This document shows positions 9,333-45,437 of a DNA stretch of 64,000 nucleotides, piece by piece; positions within the stretch are counted from its first letter, which is position 1; each line of letters starts with the position of its first letter. The notes beneath the pieces are model-generated. The model had not been told where the DNA came from. It was given only the letters and a program-made list of their open reading frames with translations, and searched no databases. The stretch spans positions 64,001-128,000 of the forward strand of contig CBDDBZ010000031.1 in NCBI GenBank assembly GCA_965225945.1, read 5' to 3'. The DNA comes from Alphaproteobacteria bacterium (GTDB taxonomy: Bacteria; Pseudomonadota; Alphaproteobacteria; GCA-2731375). A program made the position numbers and the translations under genes.

Positions 9333-9471
9333 CTAGAGCAGCATCCGTCAGAAGGAAATCGCTTTCAGCGATCCAACTGGCGGATAAAGCTGCTCTATCA
9401 CCATGAAGAATAGAGCAATTTTATCCGAACGGATTGAACCGCACCGGTTCAATCCGTTCGGATATTGCTCT
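9333..9471. repeat. Double-hairpin palindromic element (CTAGAGC...GCTCT type MITE/RIME-like)
   Basis: Two adjacent long inverted repeats: TAGAGCAG..TCCG.CAG/CTG.CGGA..CTGCTCTA and TATCCGAACGGATTGAACCG/CGGTTCAATCCGTTCGGATA; AT-rich. Confidence 0.75.
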
Positions 9472-10179
9472 GGCCGAGCGGCGCGCGCGCTCCCCCTGCT
9501 GGCGCTGCTCGCGGGGCTGATCCCGGCCTCCGCCGACGCCGACACGGCGCGCGGCCTCCAGGCCTTCGAGGCCGGCAACTACGTAATCGCGCGGGAGGAG
9601 TTCGAGAAATCGGCGGCCGAGGGCGACGGCGCGGCGGAATATTCCCTCGGCGTCATGCAGGCCCGAGGCCTCGCCGGCTTCGAGAAGGACATGGTCAGCG
9701 CGGCGGCGTGGTTCACCTTGGCCGACGAACATGGTTTCGCGCAGGCGAGCCATGCGCTCGGCCGGATCCACCATGGCGGCGGCCTGGGAACGCGCGACGT
9801 GCCCGAGGCGATTCGGTGGTTCGAGCGCGCCTCGATCGGCGGCCATATCGAAGCGGATTTGGCGCTCGCCTCGATCTTCTATCGCGGCGACGGCGTGGCG
9901 CAGGATTTCGCGCGCAGCGCCAAGCACATCCGGCGCGCCGCCGAGGCCGGCGTCTCCACCGCGCAGCTCCACTTGGGCTACATCCTCACCCAAGGCCACG
10001 GCGTCGAGCGCTCGGCGGCGGAGGCCTATTTCTGGCTCTCCGTGGCGATGCAGAACGGCCTGAGCGAGGCCGCCGGGATGATGGCCGAGATCGACAAGGC
10101 GGAGCTCTCGACGGCGCGCCGCCTGGAGATCGAGACCAAGGCCAACGACTTCGAGCCCAAGCTGCCGGAAACCAAATAG
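9403..10179 (+). CDS. Sel1-like repeat exported protein
   Basis: Repeated A.Y.LG..Y..G.G...D...A..WF..A; hydrophobic signal-like segment. Confidence 0.88.
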   Translation: MKNRAILSERIEPHRFNPFGYCSGRAARALPLLALLAGLIPASADADTARGLQAFEAGNYVIAREEFEKSAAEGDGAAEYSLGVMQARGLAGFEKDMVSAAAWFTLADEHGFAQASHALGRIHHGGGLGTRDVPEAIRWFERASIGGHIEADLALASIFYRGDGVAQDFARSAKHIRRAAEAGVSTAQLHLGYILTQGHGVERSAAEAYFWLSVAMQNGLSEAAGMMAEIDKAELSTARRLEIETKANDFEPKLPETK

Positions 10180-10398
10180 GCTCCGGTGCGAGCCGGAACA
10201 TCGCCGCCGGCGCATGGCGGCGAAGTGCCGCGATCCAGGCGGCGTCGGGCCCGTGCACGATCGCCGACGCGCGAAACGCGACCCCGGATCGATGCGCCGC
10301 CTCGCGGGGGCTCCCACCACGGTCGTCGCAATACGCCGAATTGCGGTTCCCCGGGAGAAGCCGCCAATCCAGAATCTGGGTCTAATATTAGAAATAAT

Positions 10399-10662
10399 TG
10401 AACAGCCCAGGTAGCTGATTTCGATGAGGCTGCGGATTGGGTCTCTGGGGGCAGATTTTGTGGCTTTGGGGCGCTGACGGCCTAGATTTCGTTTGACAGA
10501 GGGTGGTTGGTCGATTCTAAGGATTCGATGGATAGGGATGTTCTTGCCTTTTTGTCGAAAGACGAGCTGATCGATGTGGTGCTGGCCCAAGGGTCGCGGC
10601 TCGCCGAGTTCGAACTCCGGCTTGGTGAACTCGAGCGCCGGCTTGGCCTGAACAGCACGAAC
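10399..10662 (+). pseudogene. 5' remnant of a second IS66 element, cut by IS21
   Basis: AACAGCCCAGGTAG end and MDRDVLAFLSKDELID..RRLGLNSTN match the left end of the IS at 587-2169. Confidence 0.85.
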
Positions 10663-10865
10663 TGTCAATCGGCGTTGAACATTGACCCCCTATCGGCGTG
10701 CAATGTTGACCCCTTTGGGGATGCACGGCGGAGGTCGTACAGGTAGTCCATAGGAGGGGCCCGCGCGCGGGCCGACGCGCCCACCACGCGGCTGGCGGCG
10801 GACCGCGCGTGGGAGGTTCCTGTGGGCCCACCTGGGCGACCGGGCGGCAGGTGGATCGGTTGCCT

Positions 10866-11594
10866 TTAGGACCGATTCTTGAAGCGCCAGGAGTCGTTTC
10901 CGGTCTCGATGATCTCGCAGTGGTGCGTCAGACGATCGAGGAGCGCGGTGGTCATCTTGGCGTCGCCGAAGACGGACGGCCATTCGCCGAAGGTCAGGTT
11001 GGTGGTGACGATGATCGAGGTGCGCTCGTAGAGCCGGCTGACGAGGTGGAACAGCAGCTGGCCTCCGGTTTGGGCGAAGGGCAGGTAGCCGAGCTCGTCG
11101 AGGATGACGAGGTCGCGCCGGGCCAGCTGATCGGCGAGCCGGCCCTGGCGGCCGGCGCGGGCTTCGGCCTCGAGCCGGTTGACCAGGTCGACGACGTTGA
11201 AGAAGCGGCCCCGGGCGCCATCGCGGATGCAGGCCCGCGCGATGGCGACGGCGAGATGGCTCTTGCCGGTGCCGGTGCCGCCGATCAGCACGGCGTTGCG
11301 CTGGTTGGCCAGGAAGCCGCCGACCGCCAACTCGCGGACCAGCGGCTCGTTGACCGGGGTGTCGGTGAAGTCGAAGTCGGCCAGCTCCTTGGCCAGCGGC
11401 AGCTTGGCGCCACTCATCTGGTACTTGATGGATCGCGCCTGCTTGTCGGCGATCTCGGCCTTCAACAGCTCGCCGATGATTCGCTGCATCGGATGCTGGC
11501 GCTTGAGGCCGTCGGCGAGCACCTCGTCGAACGCGTCGCGCATGCCGGCGAGCTTGAGTGCGGCCATCATCTCCAGGACCTCATGGCGCTCCAT
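10866..11594 (-). CDS. istB: IS21 helper ATPase
   Basis: [32 protein letters not shown]. Confidence 0.95.
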
Positions 11595-13092
11595 GGCCGA
11601 CCCCCCTCAAGCGGTCGTAGCGGGTGCAATCGGCCACCGGCTCAAAGCGAAGACGCAGGTTCGCGGGCGTCGGGATCGGCGCCGTCTCGGACGGCTGGCG
11701 CCGACGATTGAGGATGTTGAGCACGACGTCGGCGCTGCACACGCCGCCAGCGAGCGCCTCGGCACAGGCGGCCTCCACCGCCGCCAGCCCATCCGCCAGC
11801 ACGGCGGTGAGGATCTCGACCATCTGCCTGTCGCCGTCGTCGTGGCCGGCGAGCCGGACGCGCACGCGACCCAGGGCGCCGGGCAGCGCCCAGTCCTTGA
11901 ACGGCGCGCCGTTACGAAGCGCACCGGGCTTCCTCGCCAGCACGGGCACGTAGTGCCACGGGTCATAGACGGTCTGGTCGCGGCCGAAGCGCCGGGCATG
12001 CTCGGCGACGATCTCGCCGTCCTGGCGGATGACGATGCGATCGGCGTAGGCATGGACCTCGACCGGACGGCCGACGGCGCGCGCCGCCACGCTGTACTTG
12101 TTGCTGTCGAAGCGCACCAGGCAGGTCTTCGACACCGACGCCGGGACCGCGTGGAAGCCGTCGAACGGCCCGCGATAGCCGACCAGGGACGGACGCTCGT
12201 CCTCGAACACCTGCCAGACAGTCCTGTCCTTGAACACCGGGTGGGGATGACGCCGGGCGTAGGCGACGCACTGGTCCAAGAGCCAGGCGTTGAGCTCGTC
12301 GTAGGTCTTGAAGCGCAGCCGCGGGGTGAAGAACCGACCGCGGATGATCCCGACCTGGTTCTCGACCTGCCCCTTCTCCCATCCCGCTCCCGGCGTGCAT
12401 GCTGTCGGTTCGACCAGGTAGTGGCCACACATCTGCACGAAGCGCCGGTTGAACGCGCGCTCCTTGCCGATGAGGACGGTCTGCACCGCCGTCTTCATGT
12501 TGTCGTAGATGCCTCGCCGGCAGGCACCCTGGAACAGCCGGAATGCCCGGTCGTGGGCGTCGAACACCATCTCCTGGCTCTCGCGCGGATAAGCGCGGAC
12601 GAAGAACATTCGGCTGTGGCACAGCCGGACGTGCGCGACCTTGACCTTGGTCGTCACCCCCGCCAGCACCACGTACTCGTGGCTCCAGTCGAACTGATAG
12701 GCCTCGCCCGGCGAGAACACCAACGGCACATAGGTCTGCGCCGTCGATGCCGAACGGCGCCACCGCCACGCCTTGGCGTAGCGCCGCACCGCGTCGTAGC
12801 CGCCGCCATAGCCCAGACCCTCGAGGGCTTCGGAGATCCGTAGCAGCGTCAGCCGCTCCCGCTTCGACTTGGTCTCGTTGGCCTCCAGCATCCGCTCCAG
12901 CTCGGCCGTCCACGGCCCCAGCTTCGGCATCGGCTGGACCCGCCGGTCGTAGGTGAACGCCGTCGCCTGCGAACGGATCACCTTGCGCACCGTGTTGCCC
13001 GAGACCTTCACGTCCCGCACGATCTCCTTGATCGGCTTCCCCTTGACGAAATACTCCCGCCGGATCCGCGCTATCGTCTCCACGACCAACAT
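11581..13092 (-). CDS. istA: IS21 transposase
   Basis: [26 protein letters not shown]. Confidence 0.95.
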
Positions 13093-13207
13093 CCCCCACC
13101 ACCTCGTCCGCCCAAAAACGAGGTGACTTGGACTAGCCAGGCTCAGGGGGTCAAATTTGGACGCCGATCACCCCTCAACAGGGGTCAACTTTGCACGCCG
13201 TTCCACA

Positions 13208-13888
13208 GCTCTCGACTCTGCCCGGCCCGCAGCCGCTCGGCGATGCCGTCGACGAAGAGGTAGGCGATCTCGAACTCGCTAAGGTCGCGCTTGGCGAAGC
13301 CGAGGTAGTCCGCCCAGAGCCGCTCCCCCATCTCCGAGACCGCCGTGCGCGACAGCAGCAAGCGCCCACTTTCTTCCCTGAAGGCATCTTCGATGTCGCG
13401 CACCGAGAGACCGCGCGCCAGCATCTCCACGGCTAAATCCTCCAGGCCCTCGGAATGACCCTTCAGCTGCGCTCGCAGATCCGAACGGAACGGTTCGTCC
13501 GTCCCGGCGACCTGCGGCGCCGCATACCTGATCCGCCCCTCGGCCGTCTTCAGATGACCTTCGCGCGAACCGTTCCGGTAACCTCGGCCAGGCTCGGAAC
13601 CGTGCTCGTAATAGTCCCGGCCCAGGGCGTCGCGCACCTCGGCCTCCAAGCCTTCCTCGATGATCAACCGCGTCGCCAACCGCACCAATTCACTCTTCGC
13701 GTCGACCACGCGGGCGCGCCCTTCGATCAGGTCGTTCTAGGCTTCACGCGTGCGCTCGCTTCCGGGTAGTCTCTTCGTCATGGAGGTGCCTCCTGTGCTG
13801 GGCTGGCGCGCAGCCATGCCCGGGTGGGAATCGACACCTCGAAGGATGCACCTCCTACCAAATTCCCAGCAAGTCTAGGACTTCACCC
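13208..13888 (-). pseudogene. Truncated IS256-family element (left end plus 5' transposase with an internal TAG)
   Basis: GYRNG.R...LKT.EG and ARGLSVRDIE..YLFVDG motifs; ATG at 13781, stop near 13738, cut at the IS21 end; IR-like GGGTGAAGTCC at ~13888. Confidence 0.85.
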
Positions 13889-13953
13889 CAGCGGCCATGG
13901 ATCGTCTGATTTCACTAGCTTCGGACAATCTTCCTCTTCGCGGGTGCGAAGGA

Positions 13954-14068
13954 TGTTCCCGCCTCGGTAGGCGCTCACAAACAGTCGTATGAGACCAGGC
14001 TCAAAATCTATTCAAAACAACGACTTGAGAAGTCTTTCGCCGACTGGCGTGTTCTAAGTTCGCGAGTG
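13954..14068 (+). repeat. Cassette-boundary repeat R1
   Basis: TGTTCCCGCCTCGGTAGGCGCTCACAAAC..CAAAATCTATTCAAAACAACGACTTG..GCGAGTG, collinear with R2-R4. Confidence 0.8.
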
Positions 14069-14169
14069 TGAGTTGAGCGGTCGAAAGCCGCTATGGACGA
14101 CAGTCAGGGCTGACCGGGATGAAGCAGGCGGAAGAGTTTTGATCATCTGGGAACAATCGAGAGGCTCGC

Positions 14170-14481
14170 ATGGCACTTTATCTGAACGAGGTATGGATGA
14201 AGGATCCCAGCCCTGAGACCTTTCGTGAATTCATCGAGGTGTTTGGATCGCTTCGTGGCCAAGCCGATACCCTTGGACTGACTTCGGAGATCTTTCAACT
14301 CGTCGCGGGGCCTTGGATGTCGATCGAAGAGGCAAAGGTCATCTTTGTTTTCGACGCGCCCGACGTGCGGGCAACGCTTCCTGCATTCGGTGCATTGATG
14401 GCGAAGGGGCTGCTGAAGAAACGACGCCTGACGCCGATGGTCGATTGGAGCGAAGCGGCGGAGTTCGTCAACGGGCTGTGA
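14170..14481 (+). CDS. Small hypothetical protein (possibly DUF3303/GYD-like ferredoxin fold)
   Basis: 103-aa ORF with GAGG RBS; ends about 20 nt before R2. Confidence 0.7.
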   Translation: MALYLNEVWMKDPSPETFREFIEVFGSLRGQADTLGLTSEIFQLVAGPWMSIEEAKVIFVFDAPDVRATLPAFGALMAKGLLKKRRLTPMVDWSEAAEFVNGL

Positions 14482-14502
14482 ACGCCGGGCCTTTTTAGAC
14501 CA

Positions 14503-14618
14503 TCTTCTCGCCTAAGTAGGCGCTCAAAAACGGTGGTCTACGTGAAGTCACAAAACCCCTTTCAAAACATAGGCTCATCCACAGAGGAAACAAATCGGAT
14601 ATACTCTTGAGCCGAGTG
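14503..14618 (+). repeat. Cassette-boundary repeat R2
   Basis: TTCTCGCCTAAGTAGGCGCTCAAAAACGGTGGTCTACGTGAAGTCACAAAACCCCTTTCAAAACATAGGCTCA..TATACT..CGAGTG. Confidence 0.88.
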
Positions 14619-14712
14619 GCCGAAGTTCGGCCTCCCGGATGACTAAGGTCGCCGGTGGCCGGCACCTGGTTCGTCGTGGCATGGCCCATTTTCTCCGCTG
14701 CGGCGAGGCTAT

Positions 14713-16518
14713 CTAGCGTTTCGACAGCTTGGCGAGGGTTGCGAGGAGATCGGCCCGTTCGTCGGTTCCCAGTCGATCTAGGTCAAGGCTGGCCAAACGA
14801 TCCTTTATCGACGAAAGCTCATCGTCCCCTCGTTGTCCGTCATCGACCACTTCGCTTGGATCGAATGCGACCTCAAAGGTCTCGATTTCCCCGGCAATGC
14901 CCTTAAGTTCCACTGGTTCGCGCGATCTCAATTCGAAACCATCGTTGATGAGGACCCGAGTGGCTTTCGATATAAGAATGGCATTCGGCTCACACGCTTC
15001 CTGTAACCTTGCAGCGATGTTCACTGGCGTGCCAATGATCGTGTAGTCGAGGCGGTCATAACTTCCAAAGTTCCCTACAGTACAATAGCCGCTGTTGATG
15101 CCGACGCGAATCTCTAGAGGCTCCATCAAACCAAACTTGGTAAATTCTGGTTGAAGCGACGCCATACGGCGCTGCATCTCTACAGCCATATTCACGCACC
15201 GACTGGCATCCTCTTCGTTGCCTAGAGTCTCGGGATCGCCGAAGAATGCCATGATGGCATCTCCAATAAACTTATCGATCGTAGCGCCGTGGGCTCTGGC
15301 AATCTCGGTCATGGCCGAGAAGTAGGCGTTGAGGATGGCCGAAAGGGCCTCAGGTTCCAGTCGTTCCGTTTTCGGCGTGAAGTTTCGCATGTCCGAGAAG
15401 AAAATCGTCAGGTGTTTGCGCTCCGACCGGATCTCGGCATCGAATTCGCCATCAAATATCGATTTATATACCTGCTGGGGCAAATACCGGGCCAGCTTGG
15501 TCGAGACCTCCTCTACCAGTCTCTTCTGCACAGCCAGTTCTTGGTTGGTGGTTTTCAATTCCCGTGTCCGCTCGACGATTCGCTGCTCCAGGTTGCGGTT
15601 TGTGGTTGCAACGCCGGTGATGTAGTCGTTGAGCTGCCATATGGCACTGTTTTCCTGTCCAGCTGATTGCGGCAGCGCCGGTTCCCTGTCGTCCAGTGAG
15701 GTGATGCCGTGGTTCATCAGCGGATGGTAGATGTCCGCCACCTGACCGTGATAAGCCCGCGCATGTGCTAAGCAATAGACGTAGCTGGCGCCGCAATGCT
15801 CTGCCGGCACCAAGCCTTCGTAGCCAGGTCCATCGTATCCCGGATTATGGACGAACTTATCCATGAATTCTTCCTGGCTCATGCCCCACAGGCTCGGAAA
15901 GCGAGACCTGTTGTTGCGCACCAAGGGCGTGTCGACGATGCCCGGCACGAAGCCGAAGGCACTAACGCCGCTGTCATCCCCGAGCTCGCCGGCCAGCGAC
16001 AGTACCATCGACTTTTGACCAGCCATGGCCGAGGCCAAGTAGGCGCCGTGCGTCAGCGCCTCCATCGCCACGGTGTTGGCGATGACACCAAATCCATTCT
16101 CCCGCATGCGCGGCAGGACGGCCTGAATCAGAAATGCCGACGCTCTGACGGTAGTCTGCAACAGTTCGTCCCACTCCTCGACCGAGATATCTTGGAAGAA
16201 CCCAACGCGCAGCTTTGCGGCGTTGTTGACCAAAATGTCCACTTGACCATGTTCCTTGAGGATTTTGTGTTGGAACTGATCCAGTGCGTGCAAGTCGCAC
16301 AAGTCAACCTGTTCGAAGACCGCGCTTCGTGAATTGCCGCGAATGTTCGCGGCGACCTCCGCTCCCGTCTCAAGGATATCGACGAGAACGACATGCGCAC
16401 CCAAATGGGCCAAGCCGCGCGCCACTTGCTCGCCGACGCCACTCGCAGCGCCCGTCACGACGGCAACGCGACTTCGGAATGTATCTGGCTCCAAGCCCAG
16501 CCGGCCGAGCAATTCCAT
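14713..16518 (-). CDS. SDR-domain / class III adenylate cyclase fusion protein
   Basis: N-terminal TGAASGVG and LVNNAA; S-helix-like LEQRIVERTREL; cyclase motifs FFSDMRNFT, IDKFIGDAIMAFFG, DYTIIGTPVNIAARL. Confidence 0.88.
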   Translation of the reverse strand: MELLGRLGLEPDTFRSRVAVVTGAASGVGEQVARGLAHLGAHVVLVDILETGAEVAANIRGNSRSAVFEQVDLCDLHALDQFQHKILKEHGQVDILVNNAAKLRVGFFQDISVEEWDELLQTTVRASAFLIQAVLPRMRENGFGVIANTVAMEALTHGAYLASAMAGQKSMVLSLAGELGDDSGVSAFGFVPGIVDTPLVRNNRSRFPSLWGMSQEEFMDKFVHNPGYDGPGYEGLVPAEHCGASYVYCLAHARAYHGQVADIYHPLMNHGITSLDDREPALPQSAGQENSAIWQLNDYITGVATTNRNLEQRIVERTRELKTTNQELAVQKRLVEEVSTKLARYLPQQVYKSIFDGEFDAEIRSERKHLTIFFSDMRNFTPKTERLEPEALSAILNAYFSAMTEIARAHGATIDKFIGDAIMAFFGDPETLGNEEDASRCVNMAVEMQRRMASLQPEFTKFGLMEPLEIRVGINSGYCTVGNFGSYDRLDYTIIGTPVNIAARLQEACEPNAILISKATRVLINDGFELRSREPVELKGIAGEIETFEVAFDPSEVVDDGQRGDDELSSIKDRLASLDLDRLGTDERADLLATLAKLSKR

Positions 16519-16747
16519 ATGACCCTCCTGACCACGGAAGTTAATCTAGTCGCGCCGACTGGGCGATAGGTCTCGAACTGGATATACCACGACTCGCCCC
16601 CTCCGCCTCGGTTCGTCGGCTTCCACCAGATTCGGGCATCTCGCATCGTGCCAAGTTTCGAATATATTCCCGCCTCAGTAGGCGCTCACAAACGGTGGTT
16701 TCCGTTGATTGAGCAACCTGATGTGTGGAAATTCGGAACGCCGTTGA

Positions 16748-17959
16748 TCAGTCATCCTCTGCTTTCCAAGTGATGTAGGGTTTTTCGGTGGTTTCCCATT
16801 TCTCGTCGATTTCGACGAGGATGGCGGTGACCAGACGTTCGAGCGAGGCCTCGTTGGGAAAGACCCTGACCTTTACGGTGCGGCGCTTGATCTCCTGCTG
16901 GATGGATCGCTCCATGGGGTTCGAGGTTCGCATGCGCTTTTGGTGGCGCTCGGGCAGGGCGAAGACGGCGAGGCCCTCGGGGATCGCCGTCTCCAGCCAA
17001 TCGGCGAGCTTGGGGGCGCTGTCGCGGTAGGCCGCCACCAGATGGCCCAGCTCGGCCTCGGCGGCCTTGCCGTCGGCGGCGTTCCAGACCCGGCGCAGCT
17101 CCTTGCCGATGGCCTTTCGGATGGCGAGGTTGGGGGCGTGATGGATGGCGTTTTGAGCCAGATGGTACTGACAGCGCTGCCAGACGGCGCCGCCGAGGAC
17201 GGCCTTGCGCGCGGCGCCGAGGCCTGGATGATCATCGGAAACGATATAGGCGACACCGCGCATGCCACCGGCAACCAGGGTCTCCAGGAAGGCGCGCCAG
17301 TGCACTTCGGCCTCGGAGAGCGCACAGGAAACACCGAGCACCCGGCGGCGCTGGTCGGGGCCGATGCCGATCACCGAGAGCACGGCGGCGTCGCGCACCA
17401 CGCCACCCTCTCGGACTTTCTCATAGCGCGCGTCGAGGAGCAGGTAGCGGATCTCGCCCAGCGGCCGGTTGCGCCAGGCATCCAGCTCCCCATCCAAGAG
17501 CTTGGCGGCGCGGCTGACCTGGCTCGACGACAGGCTCTCCAGGCCGAACTCGCGCATCACCGCCTCGGCGTCACGGGTGGAGACGCCTTTGATATACATC
17601 TCCGCCACGGCCAGCATGACAGCGCGGCAGGAGCGCCGTCCGCGCTCCAGGGCTTGGGGGTAAAAAGGCGCCTCATGACCGGCGGTCTTGGGAACCTCGA
17701 GCCTCACCGTACCGGCCGGGGTGTCGATCTTCTTGGGTCTGGTGCCGTTGGCGTATCCCCGCCGCTCGGGCGTGCGCTCATAGTGGCCGGCGCCCAAGAA
17801 CCTCTCCCGCTCGATCCGCATGGCGAGATTGAAAAGGCCGGCGAAGACCGTCGCCATGTTCTCGCTACCGCCTTCGATCAATTGTTCCACCAAAGCCTCG
17901 ACAGCGCTATCCTGGTCTTTCCGCATACTGGTTCTCCATGTTTGTTTGGACGCTTTCAT
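16748..17959 (-). CDS. IS256-family transposase
   Basis: YLLLDARYEKVR, IVSDDH.GL, WQRCQYH, RTSNPMER. Confidence 0.95.
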   Translation of the reverse strand: MKASKQTWRTSMRKDQDSAVEALVEQLIEGGSENMATVFAGLFNLAMRIERERFLGAGHYERTPERRGYANGTRPKKIDTPAGTVRLEVPKTAGHEAPFYPQALERGRRSCRAVMLAVAEMYIKGVSTRDAEAVMREFGLESLSSSQVSRAAKLLDGELDAWRNRPLGEIRYLLLDARYEKVREGGVVRDAAVLSVIGIGPDQRRRVLGVSCALSEAEVHWRAFLETLVAGGMRGVAYIVSDDHPGLGAARKAVLGGAVWQRCQYHLAQNAIHHAPNLAIRKAIGKELRRVWNAADGKAAEAELGHLVAAYRDSAPKLADWLETAIPEGLAVFALPERHQKRMRTSNPMERSIQQEIKRRTVKVRVFPNEASLERLVTAILVEIDEKWETTEKPYITWKAEDD

Positions 17960-18019
17960 GGATAACCAAAATGACGGATCGCCCCGCGCCGGGGTATACC
18001 CCGGCGCGGGGCGAAGCCA

Positions 18020-19470
18020 GGGGATGTCCCGGGCTCTGTTGAAAAGCTGAAGTAGGCGTCGTCCGCCTGGAGCCGCTAGGCTCTGGGTGCTGATTCCATC
18101 AAGGAGAACGACGCCATGACCAAGACTACACGCAACGACCGTTCCTCGGAACCATCCTGTCGGCTCTTGCCATCGATGCCGGAGGCCTTCGACGATCTGC
18201 GCATGAGCGTCGATCGCTTCTGCCTTTTGGCGGGCCTCGAGTCTTTGAACGAGATGATGTCGGCGGACGCGGAAGCCTTGTGCGGTTCGCGCCACGCCCG
18301 CTCGGGCGAGCGCAAGGGCCATCGATGGGGCACGACCCGGAGCGAGATCGCCTACCACGGCGGCAAAGTGAAGGTCGAGCGCCCTCGGGTGCGGGACTTC
18401 GCGGGTCGGGAGATGAGCCTGCCGAGTTGGGAGCTGCTGTCGGAACCCGAACTCTTGCAAGCCTGGGCGATGAATCTGATGGTGATCAACGTCTCGACCC
18501 GCAAGTATGCCCGCGCGGTGCGCCTGCCGGACGATGCGGGCGGCGATCTGCCGGCGGCATCGGGTGACGCAACCTCGAAGTCGGCGGTCTCGCGCCGTTT
18601 CGTGGCGTTGACGCGAAGCAAGCTGAAGGCCTGGCTGGCGAGCCCGCTCGACGATCTCGATCTCGTGGTGCTCCAGATCGACGGGCTCCATGTCGGCGAT
18701 CACCTGATGGTGGCGGCGATCGGCATCGACACCGGCGGCGCGAAGCACGTGCTGGGCCTGGCCGAGGGCGCGACGGAGAACGCGGCCACGGTGCAAGCCA
18801 TGCTCGACAACCTGATCGAGCGCGGTCTCGATCCCGAACGGCCTCGGCTCTACATCGTCGACGGCGCCAAGGCGCTCTCGAAGGCGATCCGGCGGACCTT
18901 CGGGCGGGCGGCGGCCCTCCAGCGCTGCCAGGTGCACAAGGGGCGCAACATCACGGACCGGCTGGACGAGAGCCTCCATGCCGGCGTCAGGAAGGTCTTG
19001 CGGCAGGCCTGGCAGCAGGACGACGCGGCCAAGGCCGAACGGCTCTTGCGCAACCTCGCCCGCCGTCTGGAGCATGACGCACCCGGCGTCTCGGGCTCGA
19101 TCCTGGAGGGCCTGGACGAGATCCTGACCGTGATCCGGCTCGGCCTCCCGCCGCAACTTCGACACTCGCTGGCTTGCACCAACGCCATCGAGAACGCGAT
19201 CGGCACCGTCCGGACGGTGCAGCGGAACGTCAAGCGCTGGCGCAACGCCGAGATGGCGCTGCGTTGGACCGCCGCCGGCCTCTTGGAGGCGCAAAAGACC
19301 TTCCGCCGCCTCAAGGCCTACCGCCAGCTCCCCGTCCTTGACGCCGCCCTGCGGGAGGCGGTGAGAAAGGCCGGAGCAAAGTCCGTCATTGAAGACATCG
19401 AGGTGGCCGCGTAGCCTCTCGATCAGACGATGCCTATCTCGCACTTTTCAACATTGGGCGGGACATCGCC
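18020..19470 (+). mobile_element. Different IS256-family element nested in the leader of copy A
   Basis: IR GGGATGTCCCG..TGTTGAAAAG / CTTTTCAACA..CGGGACATCGCC; 8-bp TSD CGAAGCCA. Confidence 0.93.
18116..19414 (+). CDS. IS256-family transposase
   Basis: LQIDG, IVDGAKAL, QRCQVHK.RN, CTNAIEN. Confidence 0.93.
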   Translation: MTKTTRNDRSSEPSCRLLPSMPEAFDDLRMSVDRFCLLAGLESLNEMMSADAEALCGSRHARSGERKGHRWGTTRSEIAYHGGKVKVERPRVRDFAGREMSLPSWELLSEPELLQAWAMNLMVINVSTRKYARAVRLPDDAGGDLPAASGDATSKSAVSRRFVALTRSKLKAWLASPLDDLDLVVLQIDGLHVGDHLMVAAIGIDTGGAKHVLGLAEGATENAATVQAMLDNLIERGLDPERPRLYIVDGAKALSKAIRRTFGRAAALQRCQVHKGRNITDRLDESLHAGVRKVLRQAWQQDDAAKAERLLRNLARRLEHDAPGVSGSILEGLDEILTVIRLGLPPQLRHSLACTNAIENAIGTVRTVQRNVKRWRNAEMALRWTAAGLLEAQKTFRRLKAYRQLPVLDAALREAVRKAGAKSVIEDIEVAA

Positions 19471-19729
19471 CGAAGCCAAATTTCCAGACCTCACGCTACA
19501 CAAGCTTTCCGTTAATTCACAAAACCCTATTCAAAACATGGGCTTATCGGCGCAATATCCGAAGGGGTATACTTCCCTGGCGAGTGGTGGCATTCAGGTT
19601 TCTGGGCAACGCTCACCCCGTGATCTTCTGTGCATGCTTCCACACGCCGTCGCCGCGCCCACCAGTGGTGTTGAGCCGGTGCGAGATTTTCCTCGTCGAT
19701 ATTGATCCTTATCCGTCCATCGTCGACCA

Positions 19730-20764
19730 TTGGGCGATTCGGCTGAGCGGTTCGCCTGGCCGCTCGACCTGGGGATGCCCCATGCAACGACGAAACGAGC
19801 CATGCCGGCAGCGGAAAAAACGATACGTTTGACGACGACACAGATGGCCTGTCTTGACGCCTTGGAGGAAGGCCTCCAAACCAAGACCAAGATCGCGCTC
19901 CATGTCGGGCAAAATCTGAGAAACGTCGCCGCCGCCCTGGAAATCCTTCGTGATGCCGGGCTGGTCGAGCACCGCGACGGCAACATCTGGCGACCGCTCG
20001 GGCGGAACCGTCACCGCGCGATCGATGTCGTTCCCGCCCCGAAGCGTCGTGGTCCTGGCCGCCCACCGGGAAGATCTGCCTCGGATACGGCGAATCGCAT
20101 GCTCGCCGCTCTTGAGCGGCCTCGCCACGGCCGGGCGTTGACGAAGCACCTCGGCGTCGCGCGGCAACGTGTGCATCAACTCATCGTTCAGTTGCACGCC
20201 GAGGGGCTCGTACGGATCGGCGATCCGGAAACGCCGATGCACATCATCGCCAGAAGTGAGGACGCCTCGATTCTGCTGACCCGTGACGAGGAACGCATTC
20301 TCTCCGCAGTTCCGGAGCGAACCTCCGCGACCGCGCCCCGGTTGAGCGTCGCCACGAGAGTGCCCCACGACCGCCTGCTCGCCATGATATCGGCACTCCA
20401 AGCCAAGGGTATGCTGGAGCAGGTCGAAACCAATCGAGGGCAGGCGTCGTACCAATTGACGGCCGAGGGTCGAGATCATTTCCAACGTGATACGACCAAA
20501 CCCATGGCCACGCCGCTACCGCTACCGGTCAGATCGCAACGAGTCTTCGATGTGCTTGGCTATATCTCCGAGCTGGGCGAGGCGCGGATCGTGGAAATCG
20601 GGCACGCCTTCGGGATCTCGCAACAAATCATAAATGGCCTGATGCAGTCTCTGAAGAGCAGGGGATTGGTCGAAAAAAAAGAAGGCGATCGGTACGCCCC
20701 ATATGTGTTGACCGACGATGGAAAAGCTACCTTGGAAGGGCTGGTGCGCAATCATTCACGTTGA
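19730..20764 (+). CDS. Multi-winged-helix (MarR-like repeats) DNA-binding protein; start uncertain (19730/19775/19802)
   Basis: About four repeats of helix..L...GLV...Y.LT..G (LRDAGLVE, LHAEGLVR, LQAKGMLE..YQLTAEG, LKSRGLVE..YVLTDDG). Confidence 0.72.
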   Translation: MGDSAERFAWPLDLGMPHATTKRAMPAAEKTIRLTTTQMACLDALEEGLQTKTKIALHVGQNLRNVAAALEILRDAGLVEHRDGNIWRPLGRNRHRAIDVVPAPKRRGPGRPPGRSASDTANRMLAALERPRHGRALTKHLGVARQRVHQLIVQLHAEGLVRIGDPETPMHIIARSEDASILLTRDEERILSAVPERTSATAPRLSVATRVPHDRLLAMISALQAKGMLEQVETNRGQASYQLTAEGRDHFQRDTTKPMATPLPLPVRSQRVFDVLGYISELGEARIVEIGHAFGISQQIINGLMQSLKSRGLVEKKEGDRYAPYVLTDDGKATLEGLVRNHSR

Positions 20765-20995
20765 ACCGCAGCCGCAACGGCATCTCGTTGCCGACGAATT
20801 TGTGGACCGTCAAGGCATAGAAGCGCTCACCCAGGTAGGCTATGGTTTCCGCCGTATTTCCCAACTTCGCCGCGCCGGTGGAAATGGTGGATTCGGGGGT
20901 GAGGATAGGAGGCGACCAAGGGCGGATGCTCGACCCGCCGCTTCCCGCCGACGGCATAAATTCCAGGCATCACTCCTCAACGCACCGTGTTGAGA

Positions 20996-21111
20996 TGTTC
21001 CCGCTCTGGTAGGTTCACAGAAACGGTGGTCTACGTGAATTCACAAAACCCTATTTAAATCAGTTGGTTATCCCCAGGCAGGCCAGATGGAGTATACTCC
21101 TGCCGCGAGTG
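20996..21111 (+). repeat. Cassette-boundary repeat R4
   Basis: TGTTCCCGCTCTGGTAGGTTCACAGAAACGGTGGTCTACGTGAATTCACAAAACCCTATTTAAATCAGTTGGTTA..GTATACT..GCGAGTG. Confidence 0.88.
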
Positions 21112-21317
21112 ACGGAGTTTCGGCTTTCAGGGTGACTCCGGTCATGGGGGCCGTCGCCCGGTTCGTCCGGGTATGACCCATTTAAGACATCGAGTACGAT
21201 GTGTGAAGCGGGCGTATCAAGCGGATAGACAGTCGTCGTCGAAGCGCTGTTCCAGCGGCTCTGACAAATTAAAATCGACCAATATCCCCCGCCCCCGATC
21301 ATGCGGTCGGATTATCG

Positions 21318-22574
21318 TTATTGCTTGTACGGGTAGACGATGGCGCCTGATTTCACGCTCTCCGGATAGAGCACGATGCGCTTGCCGGCGTGCTTGAACT
21401 GTTCCAAGTCGTTGGGCGCGACGTCGCGGAACTGAACCAGCAAGGTCCGCGTCTTCGCCCACTCGCCGTTCTTGCCGAAAGTAACGGGACCGACCACCGT
21501 TTCGAAGGTCGTGGCGTGGATGTATTCGGCGATCGCCTTCTGATCGAGGCTGCCGACCGCGTTCACCGCCTGACCGAGAACCTGCAGGTAGGCATAGGCG
21601 AAGGGCGGCAGGTAATGCCCCAGGGGATCGACCTTCTTGCCCTTGGCGGCGGCCTGGTACTTCTTCAGAAAGGCCTCGACGCCCTCGAAATCGAGGGTCG
21701 GCTCGGGCACCCAGAAATCATAGTTGACGATGTTGTTCAGCATCGGGCCCAGGTTCTTCTGGATTGCCGCGAACTGCAGGCCGACCATGCCGCCGCCGAA
21801 CATCTTGGCCTCGAGGCCGAGTTCGTTCGCCGCCTTGACCAGGCCGACCGAGCCATGCGGATAGGAGCCCATGAAGACGAGATCGGCGCCCGAGGCCTTG
21901 ATCGCCCGGATCACCGGCGTCAGGTCGCTGGAGCCGAACGGGAAGGTCTTGTCGTAGACGATCTCCAGGCCGACTTTTTCGGCATTGATGCGAGCGCCCG
22001 AAACGACGTTGCGGGCGAACTCCGCGTCCTCGGCCAGCAGCGCGATGCTCTTCGGCTTCGGACTCTGCGCCATGGCCAGCGCGAAGAATCCCCGGGTCGA
22101 GTCCACTTTGGGCACCGGGCCCGCCGGTAGGATCTGGAAATAGCGGTCGTAGTCGAAGCGGTCGTTGACGGCGAGCCCGAACAGCGCCATGAAAACCAGC
22201 CCCTTGCGCATGACGATGGGCATGGCCGGCGAGATCACGTTGGTGCCGTAGCTGGAGACCACCAGATCCACCTTGTCGACGTTGAGAAGCTTGCTGTAGA
22301 TGCCGGGCACCTTGGACGGCGTGGTGGCGTCGTCGTAGTAGACGAACTCGACCTGCCGGGCGAGCAGGCCGCCCTGCTTGTTGACGTCCTCGCGCCAGAT
22401 TTCCATGGCGATCAAGGCCGCCTTTCCGGCGCCCGCGAGCGCCCCGGTGAGCGCCATGGAGAAGCCGATCTTGAGCGGCTCCGCCCCCCGCGCCACGACC
22501 GGGGCCAAAAGCAGGGCGGCGACCAGCGTCCCGCCGAGCGTCATCATCCGGCGCGTGGTCGTGAAATTCTCCAA
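21318..22574 (-). CDS. Branched-chain amino acid ABC transporter substrate-binding protein (orphan)
   Basis: Signal peptide, LKIGFSMALTG.LA, VYYDD, LivJ-type architecture. Confidence 0.9.
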   Translation of the reverse strand: MENFTTTRRMMTLGGTLVAALLLAPVVARGAEPLKIGFSMALTGALAGAGKAALIAMEIWREDVNKQGGLLARQVEFVYYDDATTPSKVPGIYSKLLNVDKVDLVVSSYGTNVISPAMPIVMRKGLVFMALFGLAVNDRFDYDRYFQILPAGPVPKVDSTRGFFALAMAQSPKPKSIALLAEDAEFARNVVSGARINAEKVGLEIVYDKTFPFGSSDLTPVIRAIKASGADLVFMGSYPHGSVGLVKAANELGLEAKMFGGGMVGLQFAAIQKNLGPMLNNIVNYDFWVPEPTLDFEGVEAFLKKYQAAAKGKKVDPLGHYLPPFAYAYLQVLGQAVNAVGSLDQKAIAEYIHATTFETVVGPVTFGKNGEWAKTRTLLVQFRDVAPNDLEQFKHAGKRIVLYPESVKSGAIVYPYKQ

Positions 22575-22743
22575 AATCGACTACCACCCCCGTTGCTCGA
22601 TCGGGCCGGTGCCCAAATAGCGCTCCCGGGCTGGTGGCGATGGTAGCACGAAGCGGGCCAGCGGCCGCATGAAGTCGCCTGGAATATAGACCAGGGCGTG
22701 ACGTTGGAGCCGGCGGCGCGCGCTGGCCGAGGGACAAAACAGC

Positions 22744-22779
22744 CGGGAGCGGGGGAGGCTTGCGCCTCCCCCGCTCCCG
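22744..22779. terminator. Strong GC hairpin, probable terminator
   Basis: CGGGAGCGGGGGAGGC-TTGC-GCCTCCCCCGCTCCCG just after the stop of the minus-strand gene at 22811. Confidence 0.6.
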
Positions 22780-22810
22780 CTCGGATACACCGCTCTCCTC
22801 CGCGGCACCT

Positions 22811-23130
22811 CTATCCGCACCGCTGGAAACAGTAGAGATGAGCCAGGTTGTCGCAGGTTGGCGACCCACTCTTACCTATCCATACCTGCGTCAGCGCGAA
22901 AGCCGAGCCACGCAACCCGTCAGAGGCCGCGGTTCCGTCCGTCCAGTCGTTGCACGCGTTCCCAAAATAGGTGCCGGGGGTCAGGCCAAGACCATTCGCG
23001 CCGATTGTACCGGTCCAGACCTCGTCCGTCCCAGCGAAGCCGAAGCCGAATTCGTCCCGATCGATGGAATCGAAGAGCAGCGTGGCACCGAACAGCCCGG
23101 CCTTGTCATCCGCCAACGGTACGCCATCGG
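22811..23130 (-). pseudogene. C-terminal fragment of a DUF1554/endostatin-like Cys-rich secreted protein
   Basis: VWTG....NACNDWT..G..W...C....HLYCFQ; no 5' end. Confidence 0.65.
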
Positions 23131-23154
23131 AGCGAATATATCCGTCTAGATTCT

Positions 23155-23558
23155 CGGGCAGGCCGGAGGAATCGATCGCCGCGATGGATAATGCGCTCAG
23201 GCTCAGCCCGCATGACCCCTACCATTGGATTTTCCTGACGATACGGGCGGGGGCCCTCGCGATTGCGAAGCGCCATGACGAGGCCCTGGCGAGCGCCAAT
23301 GAGGCGGTGCGGCATCCCGGCGCCAAGCTGACGGCCGTCGTGATACAAGCGGGATGTCTGGCACTCGTCGGGCAACCCCAGGAAGCGCGCGCGGCATTGG
23401 ACAGGGCGCGCCAGTTCAAGCCGGACCTCTCGGCGGACTATCTCAAAATAATCTGGCCCATGAAGAACCCGCACGAATTCGACTATATTATCGACGGCCT
23501 CCGCGACCTCGGCCTGCCGGAGGGCGACGACGTTCGCGACGGGGCCTGCTCAGCATAG
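23155..23558 (+). pseudogene. C-terminal TPR fragment, paralogue of 30683-31031
   Basis: GRPEESI.AMDNALRLSPHDPYHWIFLT.RAGALAIAKRH... nearly identical to the regulator C-terminus. Confidence 0.88.
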
Positions 23559-24548
23559 GACCAGCCCGCCGCTGCCCAAGCCCTTGCTCCGCCCCCTGTA
23601 CGATTGTTTCACAGGGAGCTTAACAGGCCGGATTTGACGGATGCCAAGCCGCTACTTGACGAACTCTCTTGGGCCCGTTTCTGATGCGGTGGACGGCTCC
23701 CGCCTCCGGCATCATAACACGTAACATTGCGGTTGCTGTTGACGGATCGCCAATGGAGAGTGGCCCATATTTTAGTTAATATGAATGTCAAGTCTTGACC
23801 CAAATGAGACCTCGTGGAGGGTTACACGACCATTGACCGGGAGACAAATGGTGGCGTTCGATGATTGCGCAAGGCCGGTCTTGGCCCAAGGTCTGGGTGC
23901 GGCGGTCTTCGCTGGCGTTGGCGCGGAAATAGCCGGGGGAAGCTATGTGCCTCCACCCGGCTATCGGCCGGCGGCGGGACCGGTCAGGAGGCAGCCTGGA
24001 GCCCGCCCCCGCGCCGACCGTCGATGGTCTCCGCTCAGCCCCGCGCCGCCTGGGCGACCTGGGTGAGCAGGGCGTTGATCGTGGCTTGCAGATCGCAATC
24101 GCGGATCCAGTCGTTTTTGTCCGCGGCGTCGGCGTCGGCACAGCCGTTGAACTTGCCCAAGAGGCCGTTGCCGGTGAGCAGGCTGACCGCGTCGTAATCG
24201 CCGGCTTCAAGGCGCTGTAACACCTTGCCGAGCTTATAGGTCAACCGCTTGACCTTCTTCGGGTTGGTGAACAAAGCCACATCCGCGTTGGCGATCAGAT
24301 CGATGGCCTCGATCAGCGGCGCGGTGATGGCATCGGTGTCGGAGAGTACGGCTTCGATGGTGACCATTGCCGGCGCGCTGGCGAGGTTGCCGTCAAAGAC
24401 CACCAAGCTGGCCTGATAGCTGCCGGGCTGGTCGGGGACGAAGCTGGGGCTCGCCGCGCCAGGGTGGTCGAGGGACGAGACACTGGCCTCGGGCACGGTG
24501 CCGAGGGTCCAGTTGTAGCTCAAGTCATCGCCATTGGCGTCACTGCTG

Positions 24549-25888
24549 GATTGAGCAACCTGATGTGTGGAAATTCGGAACGCCGTTGATCAGTCATCCT
24601 CTGCTTTCCAAGTGATGTAGGGTTTTTCGGTGGTTTCCCATTTCTCGTCGATTTCGACGAGGATGGCGGTGACCAGACGTTCGAGCGAGGCCTCGTTGGG
24701 AAAGACCCTGACCTTTACGGTGCGGCGCTTGATCTCCTGCTGGATGGATCGCTCCATGGGGTTCGAGGTTCGCATGCGCTTTTGGTGGCGCTCGGGCAGG
24801 GCGAAGACGGCGAGGCCCTCGGGGATCGCCGTCTCCAGCCAATCGGCGAGCTTGGGGGCGCTGTCGCGGTAGGCCGCCACCAGATGGCCCAGCTCGGCCT
24901 CGGCGGCCTTGCCGTCGGCGGCATTCCAGACCCGGCGCAGCTCCTTGCCGATGGCCTTTCGGATGGCGAGGTTGGGGGCGTGATGGATGGCGTTTTGAGC
25001 CAGATGGTACTGACAGCGCTGCCAGACGGCGCCGCCGAGGACGGCCTTGCGCGCGGCGCCGAGGCCTGGATGATCATCGGAAACGATATAGGCGACACCG
25101 CGCATGCCACCGGCAACCAGGGTCTCCAGGAAGGCGCGCCAGTGCACTTCGGCCTCGGAGAGCGCACAGGAAACACCGAGCACCCGGCGGCGCTGGTCGG
25201 GGCCGATGCCGATCACCGAGAGCACGGCGGCGTCGCGCACCACGCCACCCTCTCGGACTTTCTCATAGCGCGCGTCGAGGAGCAGGTAGCGGATCTCGCC
25301 CAGCGGCCGGTTGCGCCAGGCATCCAGCTCCCCATCCAAGAGCTTGGCGGCGCGGCTGACCTGGCTCGACGACAGGCTCTCCAGGCCGAACTCGCGCATC
25401 ACCGCCTCGGCGTCACGGGTGGAGACGCCTTTGATATACATCTCCGCCACGGCCAGCATGACAGCGCGGCAGGAGCGCCGTCCGCGCTCCAGGGCTTGGG
25501 GGTAAAAAGGCGCCTCATGACCGGCGGTCTTGGGAACCTCGAGCCTCACCGTACCGGCCGGGGTGTCGATCTTCTTGGGTCTGGTGCCGTTGGCGTATCC
25601 CCGCCGCTCGGGCGTGCGCTCATAGTGGCCGGCGCCCAAGAACCTCTCCCGCTCGATCCGCATGGCGAGATTGAAAAGGCCGGCGAAGACCGTCGCCATG
25701 TTCTCGCTACCGCCTTCGATCAATTGTTCCACCAAAGCCTCGACAGCGCTATCCTGGTCTTTCCGCATACTGGTTCTCCATGTTTGTTTGGACGCTTTCA
25801 TGGATAACCAAAATGACGGATCGCCCCGCGCCGGGGTATACCCCGGCGCGGGGCGAAGCCAAATTTCCAGACCTCACGCTACACAAGC
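24549..25888 (-). mobile_element. IS256-family element copy B
   Basis: Same sequence as copy A; TSD CACTGCTG (right copy carries a 4-bp GCGC insertion). Confidence 0.95.
24590..25801 (-). CDS. IS256-family transposase
   Basis: Identical protein to 16748-17959. Confidence 0.95.
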   Translation of the reverse strand: MKASKQTWRTSMRKDQDSAVEALVEQLIEGGSENMATVFAGLFNLAMRIERERFLGAGHYERTPERRGYANGTRPKKIDTPAGTVRLEVPKTAGHEAPFYPQALERGRRSCRAVMLAVAEMYIKGVSTRDAEAVMREFGLESLSSSQVSRAAKLLDGELDAWRNRPLGEIRYLLLDARYEKVREGGVVRDAAVLSVIGIGPDQRRRVLGVSCALSEAEVHWRAFLETLVAGGMRGVAYIVSDDHPGLGAARKAVLGGAVWQRCQYHLAQNAIHHAPNLAIRKAIGKELRRVWNAADGKAAEAELGHLVAAYRDSAPKLADWLETAIPEGLAVFALPERHQKRMRTSNPMERSIQQEIKRRTVKVRVFPNEASLERLVTAILVEIDEKWETTEKPYITWKAEDD

Positions 25889-43971: not shown

Positions 43972-45096
43972 CTAGTGTCCCGATTCCGAAGTTCGCATGA
44001 TTTTCGCCTGCTGTTCAGCGGTTTCGATTGTTCGGAGGCAGAACCGCTGGATGGCGGCGAGGATGTCATCGGCGGATTTGGTCCATTTGAAGGGTTTGGG
44101 GTTCTGGTTTGTCGTGTCGATGTAGTCGAGGATGGTGCGCTCCAGCTCCTTGGTGGAGCGATGGACGCCGCGCCTGATCTGTTTGTCGGTCAGCAGCCCG
44201 AACCAGCGCTCGACCTGGTTGAGCCAGGAGGCGCTGGTGGGTGTGAAATGGGCCTGCCAGCGCGGCCGTTTGGCGAACCAGTCGCGGATCGCCTTGGTCT
44301 TGTGGGTCCCGTAGTTGTCCATGACGATGTGGATGTCGAGATCAGCAGGGACGTTCGCCTCGACGAGGTCGAGGAATTTGCGGAACTCTCGGGCCCGATG
44401 GCGCGGGAAACATTTGCCGATGATCTCTCCCGTGGCGATGTCGAGGGCCGCGAAGAGAGAGGTCGTGCCGTGGCGCTTGTAGTCGTGGCTGCGCCGCTCC
44501 GCCTGCCCGGGGCGCATCGGCAAGAGGGGCTGGGAACGGTCCAGGGCCTGGATCTGGCTCTTTTCGTCGACACAGAGAACCAGGGCACGATCCGGCGGCG
44601 CCAAATACAGACCGACGATGTCGCGGACCTTCTCCACGAAGAAGGGATCGCTCGACAGCTTGAAGGTCTCCGAGCGATGCGGCTGCAAGCCGAAGGCCCG
44701 CCAAATGCGATGAATGGTCGAGGGCGCGTGGCCGCTCGCCCGCGCCATCGAGCGAAGGCTCCAATGGGTCGCGTCCGGCGGCGTCTCTTCCAGCGTCAGC
44801 CGGACCGCTTCCGCGATGGCGTCATCGCCGATTTGACGCGGCGCGCCGGGGCGGGGTTCGTCGTACAGACCGTCGAGGCCCTCCGCCGCATAGCGGCGAC
44901 GCCACTTGCCCACGGTGTCCGCGCTCGCCTCGAGACGAACGGCGATCTCCTTGTTCTCCAACCCTTCCGCCGCCGCCAAGACGATCCGAGCCCGCCGCGC
45001 AAGCCCCTGCGACGTCTTGCGACGACGAGACAGCGCCTCCAATTCGGCGCGCTCGTCATCGCTCAAAGAGATCGTCACCGCCACTCTCGCCATCAA
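43972..45096 (-). CDS. IS630-family transposase
   Basis: [37 protein letters not shown]. Confidence 0.95.
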
Positions 45097-45155
45097 TCGC
45101 GCCTCCTGAAAACAAATAGAGACATAATCATATCAATTTATCGATCAGGACACTA
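43973..45155 (-). mobile_element. IS630-family element
   Basis: IR TAGTGTCC(C/T)GAT, CTAG at both ends (TA duplication). Confidence 0.93.
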
Positions 45156-45437
45156 GGCTCCATCGCGGAGTTCGCGCGCGAACCTATCATCGATGGCATC
45201 GGGGACTTTCGCGCCGCCGCTCGCGAACGCGGCCGACGTCCGGCCCTTTCGCCCGAGCGGAAGATCGAAGTCCGCCGCCTGCGCGACAAGGCGGGACGCG
45301 AGATCGCCGAAATCGCCCCTTTTGTTCGAAGTTGAGCGCTGAACCGGCAGGCATCGGCTGGCGCTTGCCGACACGGCGCGCGCTCGCACATAATCCCGCC
45401 TTCGTCGAGGCGATCCGAGGAGAGGGAGGTGGCGTCG

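Follow-up and report, generated by a model that had tools for sequence, protein, structure and literature searches.

The attC sites of integrons are imperfect single-strand hairpins (R''-L''...L'-R') with RYYYAAC/GTTRRRY boxes, and the pdif modules of Acinetobacter plasmids are delimited by 28-bp Xer sites of the XerC/XerD system, arranged as inverted pairs. Small serine recombinases have been known as enzymes of deletion and inversion rather than of cassette capture, and both res-type sites and Gin-like enzymes are already well known. The res site of Tn3 measures 114 bp and contains three dimer sites (PMC2602789), and the gix and hix cores, as listed in Table 1 of PMC3985619, consist of an A-tract, 2 nt and a 2-bp centre. 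Here we studied a family of direct repeats in a 64,000-nt stretch of DNA, called the window throughout, that covers positions 64,001-128,000 of contig CBDDBZ010000031.1 (assembly GCA_965225945.1) from an Alphaproteobacteria bacterium (GCA-2731375). This stretch is present in sequencing runs of 7 studies, sponge metagenomes among them. The repeats are, in our reading, probably res-like sites belonging to a serine-recombinase module system that has decayed.

An earlier note, made from the letters of the window alone, had described four collinear repeats of the same orientation around three single genes. The four copies (R1 to R4) are indeed present, collinear and all on the + strand, with start-to-start spacings of 549, 2162 and 4331 nt. 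Their parts are the following:

R1, 13889..14072, + strand: partial left extension and core
R1 site-I-like element, 13976-13993: central GT at 13984-13985
R2, 14489..14700, + strand: core and ~85-nt tail, without left extension
R2 site-I-like element, 14525-14542: centre GT at 14533-14534
R3 left part, 16580..16705, + strand: left extension and core as far as the site-I-like element
R3 site-I-like element, 16687-16704: centre GT at 16695-16696
R3 right part, 19509..19590, + strand: two AAAAC half-sites, TATACT and CGAGTG
R4, 20890..21195, + strand: diverged left extension, core and tail
R4 site-I-like element, 21018-21035: centre GT at 21026-21027

A 22-nt core pattern (up to 3 mismatches) matched the window three times, at R1, R2 and R3, and was not found in any of 100 shuffles; R4, which is more diverged than the other three, lies outside these matches. 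The conserved unit proved to be larger than the 115-116 bp given before, and modular, reaching up to ~300 nt with a left extension of ~95 nt, the core and a right tail of ~85 nt. These modules are combined differently among copies: the left extension is present at R1, R3 and, in diverged form, R4, and the right tail at R2 and R4. In R1 the left extension is cut at 13888 by a remnant of an IS256-family insertion sequence (IS), and the sequence beyond the centre, to the right, is that of a divergent subfamily. Each copy carries a crossover-type element, CA(C/A)AAACG-GT-(G/C)GT(T/C)T, followed by two AAAAC half-sites. In its best-kept forms the element is an 8-2-8 palindrome, of which the window copies retain the left half and the GT, the right half being partly degenerate. 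Several copies (window 14578-14590 and 21064-21076; C34b and C33a elsewhere in the genome) also have a DnaA-box-like TTATCCACA ~18 nt upstream of TATACT; the R3-type subfamily lacks it.

The core of the repeats aligns with a site that precedes the gene of a small serine recombinase. In the genome to which the window belongs (G000), the copies C37c, C12 and C35 have the left extension and the core in common as far as ...CAAACGGT(C/G)GTTTTT and then differ from the other copies; we refer to this as the B form. The B-type site of C37c is followed by a short N-terminal remnant of a small serine recombinase (40% identity over 52 columns, upstream DNA included). An intact recombinase gene of 180 aa is found in a congener, G002 (C5:785143-785685), and the 110 nt upstream of it are homologous to the B form, the site being split by an IS1182-like element exactly between ...CAAAAACGG and GGTGGTTTT... 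The solved structure closest to this enzyme is that of Gin (E 1.1e-43), followed by that of the gamma-delta resolvase (E 1.5e-29). Close homologues (62-74% identity) occur in ~30 Rhodobacterales and Hyphomicrobiales genomes, and their upstream regions align into conserved blocks in the order CAAAAACG-GT-CGTTTTTG, ~35 variable nt, ACAAAACCC, CCAAAACC-N6-GTTTTGG, GTTTTTGG and the start codon. Among the 48 loci inspected out of 80 returned, the palindrome (up to 3 mismatches) stands 108-118 nt before the start codon in 20 of the 29 close loci and in none of the 18 distant ones, one of which has a palindrome at -152.

Between site I and the start codon the B form contains four AAAAC/GTTTT half-sites, two direct and two inverted. 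The form found in the array, or A form, is without ~37 nt and without the inverted half-sites, and in the window it retains only the two direct ones. R1, R2, R4 and the copy C37a are colinear over site I and the AAAAC half-sites with the A and B sites of two Hyphomicrobiales metagenome-assembled genomes (G049 and G052), of G002 and of three Rhodobacterales loci. We put it slightly above an even chance that the repeats are res-like, multi-subsite sites of a clade of small serine recombinases closer to Gin than to the gamma-delta resolvase. A crossover-type palindrome with a 2-bp centre, as in res, can be recognized in the sequence, and a position directly upstream of a recombinase gene is seen for the B-type copies only.

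The absence of an adjacent recombinase, claimed before, stands in so far as none abuts the array; the window does contain a remnant 24 kb downstream:

Recombinase remnant, 45138..45317, + strand: C-terminal part, residues 103-166, 48% identity to the Gin-like enzyme

This remnant is cut at its left by an IS630-type element (~44000-45135, - strand), and no N-terminal half of the gene was located in the genome. The other recombinase fragments of G000 are one on C29 (residues 56-178), one on C32 and the C37c stub. A recurring neighbouring serine recombinase, one of the supports that the earlier note had asked for, is seen beside variant copies in G002 (intact) and on C37 of G000 (remnant), and also beside arrays or pairs of sites in two unrelated genomes, G049 and the Roseobacter G050.

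We then determined the distribution of the repeat. A covariance model of the core, run on 33 genomes of the family, gave 16 matches in G000, 12 in G002 and 3 in the other congener, G001; none of the 30 genomes of seven other genera was matched. A BLAST-type search matched 2 of 41 genomes, and exact-pattern scans of large collections returned two chance-like matches in genome contigs and none in metagenome contigs. The copies of G000 occupy ~15 places on at least nine contigs, including a second array on contig C34, and they are strongly clustered: 8 pairs among 15 sites lie within 12 kb of each other, all 8 on the same strand, a number reached in 0 of 20000 random placements. In G002 there are 4 such pairs among 12 sites, again all same-strand, which was reached by 6 of 20000 placements.

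Arrays with different cargo were also found, as co-oriented sites in G002, G049, G050 and G052, so that the arrangement recurs in other lineages. G002 has a site-gene-site arrangement at three loci. The order in G049 is an A-type site, one cyclase gene, a B-type site and the recombinase, and that in G050 is the recombinase, a site, two open reading frames (ORFs) and a co-oriented second site. In G052, three co-oriented sites bracket a GNAT gene together with a SnoaL-like gene and then a sulfotransferase gene; these array sites and the recombinase-proximal site are alike over ~150 nt that end with the palindrome, and their similarity breaks off immediately beyond it. A similar break separates the A copies of G000 from C37c, C12 and C35. 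Such a break at the palindrome end is what exchange at that point would produce. 'Hybrid' half sites had been considered as further proof of recombination and were dropped, most of them being cut by IS elements, so that only the A/B break at site I remains. At one G002 locus (L159:8336-8448) a reverse transcriptase fragment (...GFDFLGYHFGPEG...) directly adjoins a second left extension that stands by itself; a link to reverse transcriptase was dropped, G000 having only a 21-residue relic at C25:158972-159034.

How does this family compare with the described systems? It resembles the Tn3/gamma-delta and Sin/beta res sites in its length of ~115 nt and in having a crossover palindrome with a 2-bp centre followed by more half-sites. 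It also resembles them in the position of the gene-proximal copy, immediately before the recombinase gene, where it overlaps the likely promoter, and direct repeats of the sites imply deletion, as for res. Unlike res, it has many solo copies and chromosomal co-oriented arrays that bracket single accessory genes, its array form is without part of the accessory region, its conserved unit is larger (up to 300 nt), and no transposase or plasmid backbone was seen beside the sites. With Gin/gix and Hin/hix it shares a Gin-like recombinase, the site I layout of the gix and hix cores and a site near the recombinase gene; unlike the DNA invertase systems, its clustered sites are all direct, extra half-sites are present and no invertible segment was found. 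All 8 site pairs within 12 kb in G000 and all 4 in G002 being same-strand, the layout of an invertase switch is not seen in these genomes. An inversion at the G002 locus L161 was discarded as a candidate, since an IS1182-like terminus bounds the inverted half copy, which indicates an IS-mediated rearrangement.

Like integrons, the arrays consist of co-oriented repeats that bracket mostly single, unrelated genes of lower GC content, and those of G049 and G050 start at a distinct recombinase-proximal site with the array placed divergently, as attI does by intI. Unlike integrons, the enzyme is a serine and not a tyrosine recombinase, the sites lack single-strand hairpins and RYYYAAC/GTTRRRY boxes, the genes stand in either orientation, some of them seem to use promoters in the repeats, and cassette movement is something that we infer here. 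The resemblance to pdif modules lies in single genes or small sets held between short sites of a housekeeping-type recombinase, appearing as exchangeable modules; the window sites differ in being ~115 nt long, direct, chromosomal and of the serine-recombinase type. Within the open-access library that was searched, no paper with the site sequence was found and keyword searches listed none on cassette arrays of serine recombinases; nor did we find a description of co-oriented chromosomal arrays in which such sites, in separate recombinase-proximal and array forms, bracket single unrelated genes.

We propose the following mechanism. The B form is the gene-proximal site, ~117 nt upstream of the recombinase start codon, and the A form is the array site, without ~37 nt and without a recombinase gene. 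Single accessory genes of lower GC stand between directly repeated A sites. The recombinase would bind two co-oriented sites and cut at their central GT, and the gene between them would leave as a one-site circle, while arrays might be built by the reverse reaction, integration, or by fusion with other site-bearing DNA. In G000 the system would be a fossil, with all recombinase copies broken by IS elements, degenerate right half-sites and a fixed array.

Taken further, this mechanism would amount to a serine-recombinase analogue of the integron, in which the Gin-like gene and its B-type site form a platform and cassettes of one or two genes with an A site are captured and lost at the GT. Such an analogue, spread over several alphaproteobacterial lineages and with the window as a decayed array of at least four cassettes, is a tentative idea to which we give rather less than an even chance; the analogy with integrons is plausible but unproven. 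If true, small serine recombinases would provide a second route to the integron-like capture of genes, one mechanistically unrelated to the first, and with the intact recombinase of G002 (C5) and both kinds of site in hand the system would be directly testable. Even if read more modestly, the finding accounts for a genus-specific repeat family, shows a recombination-site palindrome acting as a strong IS hot spot and marks accessory-gene islands in sponge-associated Alphaproteobacteria.

A number of observations weigh against the proposed mechanism. In the sites themselves, the right half-sites of R2 and R4 match at 3 of 5 positions only, none of the 12 sites of G002 lies within 2 mismatches of the ideal palindrome, and several hybrid-looking half copies are simply cut by IS elements. 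A-type sites are without the inverted accessory half-sites and are thus at most partial res sites. With regard to the enzyme, no recombinase gene stands next to any of the four window copies, and G000 contains no intact cognate recombinase, only fragments. Small serine recombinases with accessory sites normally carry out deletion, not integration (PMC3798978); since such enzymes favour deletion, stacking of units by a serine recombinase is likewise something that we infer. Moreover, in each of the five other genomes of Rhodobacterales type that were checked, the recombinase is accompanied by a single proximal site and no array, which suggests that the ordinary role of the module may be the resolution of dimers or cointegrates. 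The cargo genes of the window are absent from both congeners and none was located elsewhere beside repeats, so this form of support, named in the earlier note, was not obtained; a paralogue of the unit 2 gene, 60% identical, is repeat-free (G000:C35:296116-297897).

The same holds for the populations. To compare them, we aligned to the window the contigs of four sequencing runs, a kind of data that drops rare variants. No joint that removes or reorders a unit was seen in the four runs, and the one bridging contig, from run X2, retains the order 1-2-3. Run X12 is without cover over 19548-20967 and the RNA contigs of run X15 are sparse, and for this reason neither gives evidence either way. Excision or reordering of units was therefore not seen in these contigs, and the idea of the earlier note of units of one site and one gene stacked by site-specific recombination holds in part: the core does align with a site upstream of a serine recombinase, and no evidence was obtained that the units move.

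Several of these points are also what would be expected if the repeats were solo res relics, left by separate insertions of a res-bearing transposon, plasmid or island that then decayed, the genes between them being passengers that were never mobile. The usual state of the module, one recombinase and one site in five of five genomes, agrees with such relics, as do the crowding of the region with IS elements, the many IS-truncated copies and the lack of cassette polymorphism in the contigs of the four runs. This explanation, however, requires many independent insertions that neighbour one another and share one orientation (8 of 8 and 4 of 4 pairs), no transposon ends or remnants of a Tn3-type transposase were seen between the copies, and each unit holds just one gene; we regard it as unlikely, with about one chance in several. 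A dispersed promoter or operator module, that is, a mobile outward promoter for acquired neighbour genes with no recombination role today, is more doubtful still. R2 has a promoter-like match, TCCACA-16-TATACT, at 14578-14605, with TATACT ~17 nt after TCCACA, the genes of units 1 and 3, both on the + strand, come after the right-hand ends of R1 and R3, and leftward genes follow intact left extensions at R3, C34a, C34b, C37c and G002 L031, the unit 2 gene reading away from the R3 left extension. The same blocks of the recombinase-proximal form overlap the promoter region of the recombinase. The promoter scan nevertheless gave 2 sites against 1.6 expected from shuffles, and a promoter module leaves the palindromic site I, the break in similarity there and the co-oriented clustering unexplained.

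The close spacing and the common orientation of the copies could also result from local duplication or unequal crossing-over of one repeat, followed by insertion of the intervening genes by unrelated means. Members of the array have, however, drifted as far from one another (66-82%) as from those of other loci and of G002 (69-82%), and the family is dispersed over at least nine contigs, which leaves this explanation improbable. The least probable of all, in our view, is a family of small RNA genes made up of a promoter and a transcript of ~85 nt. It would account for the conserved TATACT followed by CGAGTG and for the conserved tail that in some copies ends in a weak hairpin and a T-run, but the tail is missing from many copies, no repeat has an Rfam match at E up to 1, and in the consensus fold 1 of 18 pairs shows a compensatory change, with a covariation term of -0.79.

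Other identities were examined and set aside. When both strands of R2, R4 and C34b were folded as single-stranded DNA, the z-scores relative to shuffles were -1.11, -0.22, 0.98, 0.94, -0.77 and 0.35; the folds being no better than those of shuffles, the copies are not attC-like. RYYYAAC/GTTRRRY boxes were not seen in the repeat sequences, in agreement with the earlier note. No IntI-type tyrosine recombinase or attI was found by the array, where the ORFs between 11000 and 24000 correspond to IS transposases, the three cargo genes and a binding protein. The sole tyrosine recombinase met near any copy is that of an IS91-family element inserted at C35.

As a miniature inverted-repeat transposable element (MITE) with terminal inverted repeats, the repeat was rejected: scores of the sequence against its reverse complement were 21, 19 and 24, with shuffle means of 21.7, 20.5 and 21.7, an apparent 14-nt terminal inverted repeat picked out by eye was not above shuffles, and no flanking target duplications of the repeats were noticed. 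The Rfam scan covered positions 10000-25000, and a structured RNA was discarded for want of a covarying structure, on the consensus fold given above. Coding mini-ORFs in the tail or left extension were dismissed by eye, as the frames of the subfamilies differ by an indel and contain stops. A tRNA-like 3' part was likewise abandoned; the weak nhmmer matches overlapped none of 53 ARAGORN genes and correspond to the end of an abundant IS, brought in via the copy C34a. Finally, the repeat is not the end of the IS91-family element at C35, because the ends common to the four copies of this IS bear no relation to the repeat; one of the four abuts a repeat, at C35, as an unrelated insertion.

The array and its surroundings are interrupted by the following elements:

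IS256-family insertion, 16706..19500: transposase at 16748-17929 (- strand)
Nested second IS256-family element, ~18012-19477: transposase at 18116-19414 (+ strand)
Target duplication TTTCCGTT, 16698-16705 and 19501-19508
IS21-family element in an IS256-family remnant, 10809..13887, - strand: istA 11581-13092, istB 10866-11594, remnant 13185-13709

R3 is split at 16705/19509 by the IS256-family element, with an 8-bp target duplication, TTTCCGTT. The rejoining of R3 over this duplication, proposed from the letters alone, was matched by a 5756-nt contig of run X2 in which 16698 is followed by 19506, with 2807 nt left out and 8 letters shared; this joint indicates that R3 is intact in another population, where unit 3 measures 1524 nt. 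At the left side the array is truncated by the IS21-family element and the IS256-family remnant. The alignment of the X2 contig begins at 13889, and further to the left this contig has 1096 letters that are absent from the window, together with a fifth complete repeat. The fifth repeat is R4-like with 17 differences and carries in addition 85 nt resembling the left extension of R3. Where these IS elements are missing, the array is therefore longer by one unit or more.

Insertions concentrate at the site centre, which is a hot spot for at least three IS families: an IS256-family element sits in R3, IS1182-like elements are inserted four times at one position in G002, and an IS21 element adjoins two half copies. 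The IS1182-like insertions (L160 ~8250, L159 ~6525, L161 ~7092 and C5:780224/785036) all follow ...AAAACGG of the palindrome, which suggests that this IS targets the recombination site in a sequence-specific way. G000 is heavily loaded with IS elements in general. One very abundant IS has more than 80 near-identical copies of its terminus (...CCTTGCCTATCCGGTTATCACCC...), for example at C32:60178-60247 and at C34:~265470-265537, the latter inside the copy C34a. The IS91-family element is ~2.8 kb long and encodes a 303-aa tyrosine recombinase and then a Y2-type transposase, which is frameshifted in the C35 copy. Its four copies (C35:322200-325040, C38:~245600-248590, C38:~270290-273130 and C26:~9360-12200) lie next to CAAG or CATA; three of them are colinear and the fourth is colinear over ~900 nt only. 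A further family of integrases, 49% identical, has ~17 copies in G000.

Each unit of the window contains one plausible gene, in the orientations +, - and + that had been described before:

Unit 1 gene, 14170..14481, + strand: 103 aa, weak sub-threshold match to the GYD domain
Unit 2 gene, 14713..16518, - strand: 601 aa, fusion of a short-chain dehydrogenase (SDR) and a class III adenylate/guanylate cyclase
Unit 3 gene, 19790..20764, + strand: 324 aa (344 aa from an upstream TTG start), repeated winged-helix (MarR/TrmB-like) domains

The GC content is 0.51-0.60 over 14000-16800 and 0.56-0.67 over 19600-21200, with flanks of 0.65-0.70, so that the lower GC claimed for the cargo applies to units 1 and 2 and only partly to unit 3. 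Congener synteny yielded no definable empty site: the left-flank protein is matched in the congeners at 63-67% identity, and the right-flank binding protein had no match at E <= 1e-50 in G001 or G002. The unit 3 protein has ~4 winged-helix repeats, and its best Pfam matches are TrmB, MarR_2 and several archaeal families of winged helix-turn-helix domains. Class III cyclase genes recur beside sites in three genomes, the adjoining loci being 14713-16518 in the window, C37:306825-307583 and C37:319684-320910, and L265:10199-11428 in G049.

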